Of a DNA stretch of 64,000 nucleotides, positions 39,193 through 42,421 are shown piece after piece. The notes under the pieces were generated by a model. It was given only the letters and a program-made list of their open reading frames with translations. It was not told where the DNA came from and searched no databases. Position 1 is the stretch's first letter. Each line of letters begins with the position of its first letter. This stretch comes from Thermoplasmatota archaeon (lineage in GTDB: Archaea; Thermoplasmatota; Thermoplasmata; UBA10834), in the NCBI GenBank assembly GCA_040751795.1, contig JBFMHR010000005.1:128001-192000 (forward strand). Direction: 5' to 3'. The position numbers and the translations under genes are program-made.

Positions 39193-40236
39193 ATGAAGAA
39201 GGCGCTCATAACCGGCATAACGGGCCAGGACGGCTCCTACCTCGCGGAGCACCTGCTCTCGAAGGGCTACGAGGTCCACGGGATCATCAGGCGCGCCAGC
39301 ACGTTCAACACCGCCAGGATAGACCACATCTACAGGGACTTCCACGAGGCGGGGACGAGGCTGTTCCTCCACTACGGCGACCTCTCCGACTCGGAGCAGA
39401 TCTCCAACATCATCTACAACATCGAGCCTGACCAGGTGTACCACCTCGGCGCCCAGAGCCACGTCCGCGTCAGCTTCGACACGCCGACCTACACGGGGGA
39501 CGTCACCGCCCTCGGCACGGCGCGGCTGCTGGAGGTCATCAGGAAGAGCTGCCTCCCGATACGCTTCTACCAGGCATCGTCGAGCGAGATGTTCGGCTCG
39601 TCCCCGCCCCCGCAGGGCGAGGAGACGCCGTTGAGGCCCAGGAGCCCCTACGCCTGCGCCAAGGTGTACTCCTACTACATGGCCCGAAACTACAGGGACG
39701 GGTACGGCGTGTTCGCCTCCAACGGCATCCTCTTCAACCACGAGAGCCCGAGGAGGGGCGAGACCTTCGTCACGAGGAAGGTCACGAGGGCCATAGCCGC
39801 CATCAGGGCGGGCACGCAGAAGCACGTCTACCTGGGGAACCTGAAGGCCAGGCGCGACTGGGGGTACGCCCCGGAGTACGTCGACGCCATGTGGCGCATC
39901 CTCCAGCAGAAGAGGCCCGACGACTTCGTGCTCGGGACCGGGGAGGCCCACTCCGTCCAGGAGTTCGTGGACGGGGCGTTCGACTACGCGGGCCTGAGGC
40001 CGAAGGACCACGTCAGGATAGACCGGAGGTACTTCAGGCCGACGGAGGTGGACGAGCTAATAGCCGACGCGACCAAGGCGAAGGACAGGCTGGGGCTCGG
40101 CCTGAGGGTGAGGTTCGACGGCCTGGTCAAGGTCATGGTGGACGCCGACATGAGGGCGGCGGGGCTCGAGCCCGTGGGCGAGGGGGACAAGCTGCTGAGG
40201 CGGCTGTTCCCGAAGAGATGGTGGGGCGCGGACTGA
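39193..40236 (+). CDS. gmd: GDP-mannose 4,6-dehydratase
   Basis: [40 protein letters not shown] and RDWGYA motifs. Confidence 0.96.
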
Positions 40237-40237
40237 G

Positions 40238-41182
40238 ATGTCTTTCTGGGGCGGGAAGCGGGTCCTGGTCACGGGGGGCGCGGGCTTCCTCGGGTCGTTC
40301 GTCGTGGAGAGGCTGGCGAGGGCCGGCGTCCCCGACGACATGGTCAGGGTGCCCAGGAGCGCGGACAGCGACCTCAGGCGCTGGGAGGGCTGCGTCTCCG
40401 CCGTGAAGGACGTCGACGTCGTGCTGCACCTCGCCGGGAGGGGCGGCGGCATCGGCGCGAACCGCGCGACCCCCGCGGACATGTTCTACGACAACGCCGC
40501 CATGGGCATCCAGCTGATGGAGGCCGCGAGGCTCGAGGGCGTCGGGAGGTTCGTCACGGTGGGGACGATATGCTCCTACCCGAAGCACACGCCCGTCCCG
40601 TTCAAGGAGTCGGAGCTCTGGAACGGCTACCCCGAGGAGACCAACGCCGCCTACGGCCTCGCCAAGAAGATGCTCCTCGTCCAGGGGCAGGCCTACAGGC
40701 AGCAGCACGGCTTCGACTCCATACACCTCCTCATGGTCAACCTGTACGGCCCCGGGGACGACTTCGACCCGAGGACCTCCCACGTCATCCCCGCGCTGAT
40801 ACGCAAGTTCGACGAGGCCGTCCGCTCCGGCTCGCGCGAGGTCGTCGTGTGGGGCACGGGGAAGGCCTCCAGGGAGTTCCTGTACGTCGACGACGCGGCG
40901 GAGGCCATACTCCTCGCGGCCGAGGGGTACCACAGCGCCGAGCCGGTCAACATCGGCGCCGGCTTCGAGATCACCATCAAGGACCTCGTGGGGCTGATTG
41001 GCAGGCTCATGGGCTACGAAGGGAAGGTGACCTGGGACACCGGCAAGCCCGACGGACAGCCCAGGAGGATGCTGGACGTCTCGAGGGCGAGGGACGCCTT
41101 CGGCTTCAGGGCCAGGACCGGGTTCGAGGACGGCCTGAAGGCGACCATCGAGTGGTACAGGAAGAGCGGACCCAAGGCGTGA
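40238..41182 (+). CDS. fcl: GDP-L-fucose synthase family epimerase/reductase (could act as ColC-type)
   Basis: [30 protein letters not shown] and PDGQPRR motifs. Confidence 0.88.
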
Positions 41183-41191
41183 ACAGCGCCA

Positions 41192-42421
41192 CTACCTCGA
41201 GACCTTGTTGACCGCCTTCGCGAACGCGTCGGCGACGTGCTCCATGTCCTCCCGCGTGAGGTACTGGTGGCAGCCGATGTAGAACCCGTTGGCGCCGGCG
41301 TACTCGGCGTTGGGCAGCTTCCCCTGGTACCTCTTCCTCAGGTGGGCGTAGGCGGGCTGGTGGATGGGGATGCAGCCGAAGAGGGGCCTCGTCTCCACGC
41401 CCTCGGCCTCGAGGGCGAGCTGCAGCCTCTCCCTGTTGAGCGTCCCCGGGTCCCTGATCACGAGCGGGTACCCCAGGTAGCTCACGTCGTCGGAGTAGAG
41501 CGGCAGCCTCAGGACGGACGAGTGCCTGGAGAGGAGGTCGTTCAGCACCTTCACGTTCGCCCTCCTCTTCCTGGCGATCTCGTTGTCCCTCAGGGTGTGC
41601 GCCTCCAGCTGGGCGTTCGCGATCGCGGCCGAGAACTCCGTCGTCTTGAAGTTGTACCCCACCTCGTCGTGGAGGAACCTGGGGTCCCAGTCCCGCTTCC
41701 CATCGCGGAACTTAGGGCACTTCCCATCGGGCCTGGTGCACACGGCGCAGTCGCAGACGCGGCCGTTCGCCTTGATCTTCCTGACGCGCCTCGCCACCTC
41801 GCGGTCGTCGGTGCAGACAGCCCCCAGCTCCCCCGCCTGGATGTTGTGCGCTATGTAGAACGAGAAGGACGATGCGTGCCCCCAGGACCCTGCCGGGCTC
41901 TCCCCGCGGTACGATCCGTGGGCCTGGGAGGCGTCTTCGAACAGCTCCAGATCCCGCCTATTGGCGATGGAGCGGAACCGGGGCATGTCGCACATGTACC
42001 CCATCAGGTGGACCGGCACCACCATTCCGGACTGGTCCCCCTTCGACTCGAGTGCCTCCTCCACGCGGTCCGGGTGGAGCGAGAAGGTCTCGGGCTCGAC
42101 ATCCGCGAACAGCGGCTCCATCCCGGACAGGACTATGGCGTTCGCCGTCGCGGCGTAGGTCAGCGGCGTGGTGACGGCCCAGTCTACCCCGTCGCCGCCC
42201 TCCTCCCTGATCCTCCTGAGGGCCACCATGCCCGCGATCAGGGCGGAGGTGCCGGAGTTCAGGGCGACGCAGTGGGAGGTCCCCACGAACGCGCTGAAGG
42301 CGTTCTCGAAGGCCCGGGTCTCCCTCCCCTCCGAGACGCGCCCGGAGTCCAGCACCCTGAGGACGGCCTTCCTCATCCCGTCATCCACCTCGAAATGGCC
42401 GACGCTCACCCTGCGCTTCAT
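41192..42421 (-). CDS. DegT/DnrJ/EryC1/StrS-fold PLP/PMP enzyme with His in place of the Schiff-base Lys; candidate sugar 3-dehydrase
   Basis: NSGTSAL, PVHLMG, EDASQAHG, SFYIAHNI (Lys position is His), GRVCDCAVC...C, GYN. Confidence 0.85.
   Translation of the reverse strand: MKRRVSVGHFEVDDGMRKAVLRVLDSGRVSEGRETRAFENAFSAFVGTSHCVALNSGTSALIAGMVALRRIREEGGDGVDWAVTTPLTYAATANAIVLSGMEPLFADVEPETFSLHPDRVEEALESKGDQSGMVVPVHLMGYMCDMPRFRSIANRRDLELFEDASQAHGSYRGESPAGSWGHASSFSFYIAHNIQAGELGAVCTDDREVARRVRKIKANGRVCDCAVCTRPDGKCPKFRDGKRDWDPRFLHDEVGYNFKTTEFSAAIANAQLEAHTLRDNEIARKRRANVKVLNDLLSRHSSVLRLPLYSDDVSYLGYPLVIRDPGTLNRERLQLALEAEGVETRPLFGCIPIHQPAYAHLRKRYQGKLPNAEYAGANGFYIGCHQYLTREDMEHVADAFAKAVNKVSR

Follow-up and report, generated by a model that had tools for sequence, protein, structure and literature searches.

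A candidate GDP-sugar 3-dehydrase with an E1-type cysteine loop in a Thermoplasmatota archaeon and its relatives

In a 64-kb window from a Thermoplasmatota archaeon (the whole stretch of DNA analysed, 64,000 nucleotides of contig JBFMHR010000005.1), a three-gene locus brings together gmd, for GDP-mannose 4,6-dehydratase, a gene for a short-chain dehydrogenase/reductase (SDR) of the GDP-L-fucose synthase (Fcl) family, and a gene of the DegT fold. The product of the last has histidine at the position of the Schiff-base lysine of aminotransferases, followed by a loop with four cysteines. It is proposed that this protein is a pyridoxamine 5'-phosphate (PMP)-dependent His-type 3-dehydrase that would carry out ferredoxin-dependent 3-deoxygenation of the Gmd product in the style of the enzyme E1, a statement to which, taken as a whole, we give a probability of about 0.55. 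Its parts are not equally firm: the gene very probably encodes a His-type, dehydrase-type DegT enzyme, and a GDP-sugar is its probable substrate, with somewhat less assurance. The family to which it belongs is most likely a large and uncharacterised branch of 3-dehydrases that keeps an iron-sulfur (Fe-S)-type Cys loop and is common in oxygen-free microbes.

The dehydrase protein

Open reading frames (ORFs), family models and translation agree with a preliminary description of this DNA, in which gmd and the Fcl-like gene were said to converge on a DegT-fold gene with His at the Schiff-base lysine position; the Cys cluster after the histidine and the EDASQAHG motif were likewise recovered by direct translation (Table 1). 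In HMMER alignments to solved structures, His192 stands opposite the histidine of wild-type E1 (3bcx), and also opposite the engineered lysine of 3bb8, an entry titled as the E1 H220K mutant, while the Cys loop GRVCDCAVCTRPDGKC aligns with the E1 loop GRDCYCAP..GCDNTC. The four-Cys motif had been called E1-like but differently spaced, which is borne out, the pattern being CxCxxCx6C here and CxCx3Cx3C in E1. The [2Fe-2S] ligand motif of E1 is reportedly C-X57-C-X1-C-X7-C (Agnihotri et al. 2004), and the window's protein departs from this RfbH-style motif: the CxC and the final cysteine can be aligned, though at a spacing of X9; the upstream Cys of E1 is replaced by Ala/Ser (EDASQA here, EDCCDA in E1, EDNCES in ColD); and the fourth cysteine, C228, is found instead inside the loop.

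Among the sequences of solved structures, E1 3bcx is the best match (152.8 bits), followed by GDP-perosamine synthase (141), by 9wvy, entered as a putative NDP-4-keto-6-deoxyglucose 3-dehydratase (third, 116), and by ColD (93-98). The RfbH/E1 equivalog model NF011936 gives 212.3 bits against a cut-off of 423, so that the protein fails this assignment. An AlphaFold (AF2) model built from a 29-sequence alignment has a mean predicted local distance difference test (pLDDT) score of 84.8, and its low-confidence stretches are precisely the His segment 191-196 and the Cys loop 224-231; for the latter this would be expected of a loop modelled without its ligand. In a Foldseek comparison GDP-perosamine synthase and E1 came first, with template modelling (TM) scores of 0.81-0.84, and ColD lower (0.80), the top matches all having the DegT fold.

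Table 1. The three-gene locus and the motifs of the DegT-fold protein (window positions)
Feature	Position	Strand	Evidence
gmd (GDP-mannose 4,6-dehydratase)	39193-40236	+	TIGR01472 477.4 bits, cut-off 415; PF16363 436 bits
Fcl-like SDR, GDP-L-fucose synthase family	40238-41182	+	NF047922 270.5-271.1 bits, below cut-off 500
DegT-fold gene, 409 aa	41192-42421	-	PF01041 269.1 bits (gathering score 19.8), residues 16-400
His192 codon, Schiff-base Lys position of aminotransferases	41846-41848	-	Direct translation; motif SFYIAHNI 41840-41863
Four-Cys loop GRVCDCAVCTRPDGKC (C223, C225, C228, C235)	41717-41764	-	Direct translation; candidate Fe-S or metal site
EDASQAHG, cofactor-cradle motif	41915-41938	-	Direct translation

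Conservation and distribution

The His and Cys motifs are retained together beyond chance. A word-indexed protein search scored 2685 proteins at E <=1e-20, and SFY[IVM]AHN with CxCxxCx6C is kept in all 120 of the homologues listed from it (50-100% identity). In the 29-sequence alignment, which spans 50-78% identity, H192 and all four loop cysteines (C223, C225, C228 and C235) are invariant, as are E162, D163, Q166, A167 and G169.

Among 185,579 species genomes (one genome per species), 274 loci were confirmed, and 79 of these were kept as a set of related loci. The kept loci are distributed over more than 20 phyla, which include Thermoplasmatota, Methanobacteriota, Bathyarchaeota, DPANN groups, Planctomycetota (Scalindua), Omnitrophota and Elusimicrobiota; two of them, L020 and L022, have identical scores and probably represent one organism binned twice. 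With 38 archaeal records, 39 bacterial and 2 unassigned, the family is not specific to archaea, the setting in which it had been put forward. The closest related loci have Thermoplasmata record titles, and the titles overall are mostly of lineages that we take to be anaerobic. Nearer home the gene is patchy: it is present in 7 of 41 genomes (the relatives of the window's genome together with that genome itself), and in 2 of the 11 others of its own genus, and is therefore seen as an accessory glycan gene.

Phylogeny among His-type enzymes

When 1.84 billion cluster representatives were searched exhaustively with HMMER, 934 were found at E <=1e-30, and the query with the best 150 of these formed the row set for further comparison. 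The key position is His in 125 rows and Lys in 22. A CxC-type Cys loop is present in 42 of the 125 His rows but in no Lys row, and the loop is therefore tied to dehydrase chemistry and not to the fold as such. Nearly all of the loop-bearing His rows (39 of 42) have CxCxxC...C, 20 of them exactly CxCxxCx6C, and in 24 of the 39 neither of the two positions after ED is a Cys. CxCxxC...C is thus the commonest loop pattern among the His-type relatives, and Yersinia E1 is the odd one.

Reference sequences were chosen by scanning 39 representatives and E. coli ColD against NCBIfam, where 11 of the 39 scored above the RfbH equivalog cut-off; these were used in place of named E1, and ColD and ColC were taken from the E. 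coli O55 genome record. A tblastn search of plasmids for named E1 and SpnQ returned only ordinary DegT aminotransferases, at 37% identity or less. Two trees were made, one with FastTree from 142 rows (10 fragments with fewer than 300 aligned residues having been dropped) and one with IQ-TREE (LG+C20, quick) from 66 chosen rows, 61 His and 5 Lys. In both, the His rows form one clade that includes the RfbH equivalogs and E. coli ColD, with support of 98-99 (in IQ-TREE, a Shimodaira-Hasegawa-like approximate likelihood ratio test (SH-aLRT) value of 98). Within it, the window's protein lies in a 23-row clade (support 99) that mixes four-Cys and loop-less members, and the RfbH equivalogs and E. coli ColD share a separate 23-row clade (support 99), inside which ColD groups with four loop-less rows (SH-aLRT 99). 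A tree constrained to unite the window's clade with the ColD group was worse by 44.7 units of log-likelihood, with p 0.027 in an approximately unbiased (AU) test of 38 rows under LG+G4, a model more prone to false rejection than a mixture model, the groups having been chosen after inspection of the tree.

The preliminary description, which had proposed a phylogeny with ColD, E1 and DegT aminotransferases, viewed the enzyme as a ColD/E1 hybrid. The trees do set the His rows apart from the Lys rows, but the hybrid is not upheld: the protein has a clade of its own, apart from that of RfbH and ColD, and therefore belongs to a third lineage that is neither E1 nor ColD nor a hybrid of the two. The occurrence of the four-Cys loop across three of the four His clades suggests that the loop is old.

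Two side observations were made among the His-type relatives. P0229 and P0243 score above the RfbH equivalog cut-off yet have no loop cysteines, and may be E1 look-alikes without a cluster, to which automatic annotation would give the name RfbH. P0137 (758 aa) has an insertion of about 370 residues exactly within the ED..Q cofactor motif; since the insertion begins with C and ends with HN, it is intein-like.

Gene neighborhood and the predicted substrate

In the window, gmd and the Fcl-like gene are 1 base apart on the same strand, and each is the sole gene of its kind found in the genome (a 2.05 Mb assembly, 92.8% complete), in which no match to the CDP-glucose 4,6-dehydratase model TIGR02622 exceeded its cut-off, the best having 84 bits. 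By its family assignment, the gmd product would provide the 4-keto-6-deoxy substrate of the pathway, and the Fcl-like SDR is a candidate for the final epimerase/4-reductase, an analogue of ColC.

Across the related loci the target is most often flanked by two SDR genes on its own strand (SDR-target-SDR), and the order gmd-target-fcl-like recurs across phyla. Counts of neighbors refer to the 77 loci in which the target was located. From these, 90 SDR neighbors at most two genes from the target were scanned: 28 (in 26 loci) are above the gmd equivalog cut-off, another 33 (in 33 loci) have the Fcl model as their best match, with scores of 140-432 bits that all fall short of its cut-off, and none of the 90 passes the cut-offs for CDP-glucose or dTDP-glucose 4,6-dehydratase. 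By BLAST to the window's proteins, with thresholds of at least 45% identity for Gmd-like and at least 35% for Fcl-like, 31 loci have a Gmd-like gene within three genes of the target and 30 have an Fcl-like one, 20 loci having both. Six related genomes have a full copy, and in each of them no more than 2.5 kb separates the gene from gmd and fcl-like, the gene order being variable. The ColD-like GDP-pathway context pointed out at the start is thus conserved far beyond the window's genome, as a cassette that recurs across phyla. Other recurrent neighbors are glycosyltransferases, methyltransferases, B12-binding radical SAM enzymes, nucleotidyltransferases and flippases.

Some further features of these loci were recorded. 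One related genome has two copies of a dehydrase/fcl-like/gmd cassette about 9 kb apart (G013:C17:56081-69182), the two dehydrases sharing 65% and 62% identity with that of the window. In a genome of the same order, the orthologue (G025:C12:33444-34658) has one in-frame TGA and is placed between gmd and fcl-like, all on one strand. The B12-binding radical SAM genes (Radical_SAM plus B12-binding) make up the fourth largest neighbor cluster (related loci L008-L086) and occur at most four genes from the dehydrase in 20 of 78 rows, these being the 77 related loci and the window, which itself has none; they are candidates for C-methylation of a deoxy sugar.

Comparison with known 3-dehydratases

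Three characterised nucleotide-sugar 3-dehydratases are listed in a 2022 review (PMC8987622), namely E1 (CDP, Fe-S, with E3), ColD (GDP, no Fe-S) and SpnQ (dTDP, Fe-S). As described there, E1 and SpnQ have a [2Fe-2S] cluster and a PMP-bound 3,4-ene intermediate that is reduced by electrons, which come from E3 for E1 and from general ferredoxin or flavodoxin systems for SpnQ; ColD has no cluster, its intermediate is hydrolysed, and PMP is regenerated from glutamate (PMC8987622).

E1 (AscC/DdhC/RfbH), the CDP-6-deoxy-L-threo-D-glycero-4-hexulose 3-dehydrase of Yersinia and Salmonella, shares with the window's protein the DegT fold, the His at the Lys position and a Cys-rich loop after a GR motif; besides being the best sequence match, 3bcx has the highest query-normalised TM-score (0.84), and, should the loop bind Fe-S, both enzymes would depend on electrons from outside. 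E1, however, occurs in a CDP-glucose context with E3, whereas the window's protein is in a GDP-mannose context where E3 was not found, and in a different clade; the loop spacing and the missing upstream Cys also set them apart.

ColD (WbdK), the GDP-4-keto-6-deoxy-D-mannose 3-dehydratase of E. coli O55 (2gms), likewise has His at the Lys position and a context of gmd and an Fcl-family gene (ColC), and its substrate is the one predicted for the window's protein. Unlike that protein, to which it is 25% identical, ColD has no Cys loop and is nested in the RfbH-containing clade; according to the review it employs pyridoxal 5'-phosphate (PLP) and glutamate, with no redox partner (PMC8987622). SpnQ, the dTDP-4-keto-2,6-dideoxyglucose 3-dehydrase of Saccharopolyspora spinosa, was compared by its description in that source (PMC8987622) as an Fe-S-type His dehydrase without a dedicated E3, which is the mode proposed here; its dTDP 2,6-dideoxy substrate and antibiotic pathway are unlike the GDP context of the window, and 9wvy is possibly a SpnQ-related solved chain. 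GDP-perosamine synthase (Per) of Caulobacter (3bn1/3dr4), the top Foldseek match (TM 0.81-0.82, 29% identity) and second-best by sequence, uses the same GDP-4-keto-6-deoxymannose, but has a catalytic Lys, no Cys loop and a 4-amino sugar as product.

The literature searched, outside of which lay most subscription journals, yielded no paper that describes a GDP-pathway Fe-S-type 3-dehydrase or archaeal 3,6-dideoxyhexoses. Although the chemistry itself is not new in kind, a GDP-pathway enzyme with an E1-type Cys loop would, if the proposal is true, fill the missing combination. It would then be possible to test how redox and non-redox 3-deoxygenation evolved from aminotransferases, and many uncultured anaerobes, among them methanogens, anammox bacteria, Bathyarchaeia and DPANN/CPR lineages, would be predicted to have 3,6-dideoxy sugars in their surface glycans.

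Proposed mechanism and electron source

In the proposed scheme, of which the substrate, metal, electron donor and product are predictions, PMP would form a ketimine with C4 of GDP-4-keto-6-deoxy-D-mannose, His192 would take the C4' proton, and the 3-OH would leave. The PMP-bound 3,4-ene intermediate would then be reduced by two single electrons by way of an Fe-S cluster, for which the invariant loop cysteines C223, C225, C228 and C235 are the putative ligands. GDP-4-keto-3,6-dideoxymannose would be released with PMP left intact, as in E1 and SpnQ, and the Fcl-like SDR would epimerise and reduce it to a colitose-like GDP-3,6-dideoxyhexose, to be passed to the glycosyltransferases of the surrounding surface-glycan island.

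The preliminary description had remarked that no E3 gene is in the window, and none was found in its ORFs or in the genome. An E3-like domain set is absent from the 52 ORFs that are 180 aa or longer and lie outside 33.9-45.6 kb of the window, and from the 8 scanned inside; in the 92.8%-complete genome no E3-type reductase was found, the three FNR-type (PF00175) proteins being of the PyrK/DHODB type and not Fer2-FNR. With no E3 gene found, a general ferredoxin or flavodoxin would act as electron donor, the arrangement described for SpnQ, and six small frames with ferredoxin motifs are present in the genome. Together, the histidine, the invariant E1-homologous loop that Lys-type relatives lack, the missing E3 and the ferredoxin frames favor SpnQ-like, ferredoxin-fed 3-deoxygenation.

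A wider proposal is offered only tentatively. The four loop cysteines might form a complete, self-contained Fe-S site, which could make this the first ferredoxin-driven GDP-sugar 3-dehydrase; CxCxxC...C might be ancestral to all His-type 3-dehydrases, with the split ligands of E1 as a later variant and ColD as a cluster-free one; and colitose-like 3,6-dideoxy sugars might be common yet overlooked on the surfaces of anaerobic archaea and bacteria in at least 20 phyla.

Alternative readings

A number of observations, on the chemistry and on the gene context, weigh against the ferredoxin-dependent reading. An experimentally studied member of the family was not found in the literature searched. 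Cys193 of E1, which we take to be a cluster ligand, has no Cys counterpart in EDASQA, and the metal of the Cys loop could be Zn. The cofactor cradle EDASQAHG is aminotransferase-like and would also fit a PLP/glutamate cycle in the manner of ColD. Small ORFs with CxxCxxCxxxCP were found within 6 kb of the target in none of the 77 loci, and no ferredoxin or reductase is among the 28 recurrent neighbor clusters. The last two points, on cradle and neighbors, would suit a ColD-style enzyme with the same substrate and product, in which PLP and PMP cycle with an amino-acid donor, the enamine is hydrolysed, the loop holds Zn or has only a structural role, and the reaction proceeds without electrons. 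Loop-less members also occur in the window's own clade, so that the loop is dispensable for the chemistry, and the characterised GDP-sugar 3-dehydratases are all of the ColD type with PLP and glutamate according to two sources (PMC8987622, PMC10440746), the C. jejuni GDP-heptose C3-dehydratases (62-67% identical) among them (PMC10440746). This reading, the main rival, is nonetheless considered unlikely, given a loop that is homologous to the cluster loop of E1, invariant in all the homologues listed and confined to His rows.

With regard to context, the dehydrase gene of the window is convergent with the gmd-fcl pair, with 9 bases between its stop and that of the Fcl-like gene, and is not co-transcribed with them. 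In 36 of the 77 loci, many of them on short contigs, neither a Gmd-like nor an Fcl-like gene is within three genes of the target. Furthermore, three of the 41 genomes (G007, G011 and G021; 69, 84 and 92% complete) have gmd and an adjacent Fcl-like gene (69-72% identical) in which the dehydrase was not found, their strong DegT matches being only on other contigs; the Fcl-like enzyme is therefore not dependent on the dehydrase. The enzyme shares 36% identity with E. coli Fcl and 30% with ColC, and with NF047922, where it has 270.5-271.1 bits, E. coli Fcl scores 550.5 and ColC 304.8. A role as a dedicated ColC analogue is not supported, since the enzyme is closer to E. coli Fcl and orthologues accompany gmd without the dehydrase in the three relatives. 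It may also, or only, make a fucose-type sugar, and the most fitting view is of a GDP-6-deoxyhexose pathway to which the dehydrase adds a branch.

The convergent orientation and the pairs that lack a dehydrase could also mean that the dehydrase is uncoupled from gmd and fcl, a GDP-fucose-type sugar being made by Gmd and the Fcl-like enzyme alone, and that it acts on another NDP-4-keto-6-deoxy sugar, for example a dTDP sugar from the rmlB-like gene at window 11959-12906 (an RmlD-like gene is also in the window), or is an aminotransferase with another Lys, as K217 and K259 are invariant in the 29-sequence alignment. That would be improbable in view of the gmd-target-fcl-like order kept across many phyla, the constant proximity to gmd and fcl in the six relatives with a full copy, and the failure of all 90 neighboring SDRs to reach the dTDP- or CDP-glucose dehydratase cut-offs; the His is moreover invariant, the protein is nested among dehydrases and not among Lys-type rows, and K259 is common to E1.

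A third reading concerns the sugar itself. HddA-, GmhA- and GmhB-like genes are found at window 7158-9451, and the Thermoplasmata relative L010 has heptose genes adjoining the dehydrase and a second gmd paralogue; the substrate could thus be a GDP-6-deoxy-4-keto-heptose from the island's heptose-phosphate genes, with 'gmd' a GDP-heptose 4,6-dehydratase and a 3,6-dideoxyheptose as product. C. jejuni makes 3,6-dideoxyheptoses in this way with a ColD-type enzyme, as described in PMC10440746. The heptose genes of the window are, however, 30 kb distant and in a low-GC block, GmhA-like genes are in only 4 of the 79 related loci and HddA-like genes in 2, and the window's Gmd is above the gmd equivalog cut-off and is the sole Gmd-type protein of the genome, which together leave a heptose substrate rather improbable beside GDP-4-keto-6-deoxy-D-mannose.

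The surrounding island and other observations

The locus is surrounded by genes for GT2 and GT4 glycosyltransferases, two UDP-N-acetylglucosamine (UDP-GlcNAc) 2-epimerases and a flippase, together with rmlB-/rmlD-like and heptose-phosphate genes, and this neighborhood is a surface-glycan island. The guanine-cytosine (GC) fraction of the three-gene locus is about 0.68, compared with 0.647 genome-wide, and blocks of low GC are on the flanks of the island; arrival of the locus by horizontal transfer with these low-GC islands was ruled out by the native GC of the three genes. The two blocks, at window 1-10000 and 46000-55500, have about 50% GC in a 64.7% GC genome and probably became part of the glycan island by horizontal transfer; besides the heptose-phosphate genes and glycosyltransferases, they carry the genes of a polytopic membrane protein of 689 aa (47565-49634) and of a Polysacc_synt flippase (46102-47367). 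The two UDP-GlcNAc 2-epimerase genes, at 30657-31739 (-) and 33904-35139 (+), are paralogous and 2 kb apart.

Divergent from the dehydrase gene, a 1002-aa protein is encoded at 42596-45604 (+), with several zinc-ribbon (DZR) repeats in its N-terminal third and a long, unmatched C-terminal remainder. Farther away, at 26449-27930 (-), is an MttB-family (trimethylamine methyltransferase) gene of 493 codons with no in-frame stop, which is therefore apparently a non-pyrrolysine member of its family.

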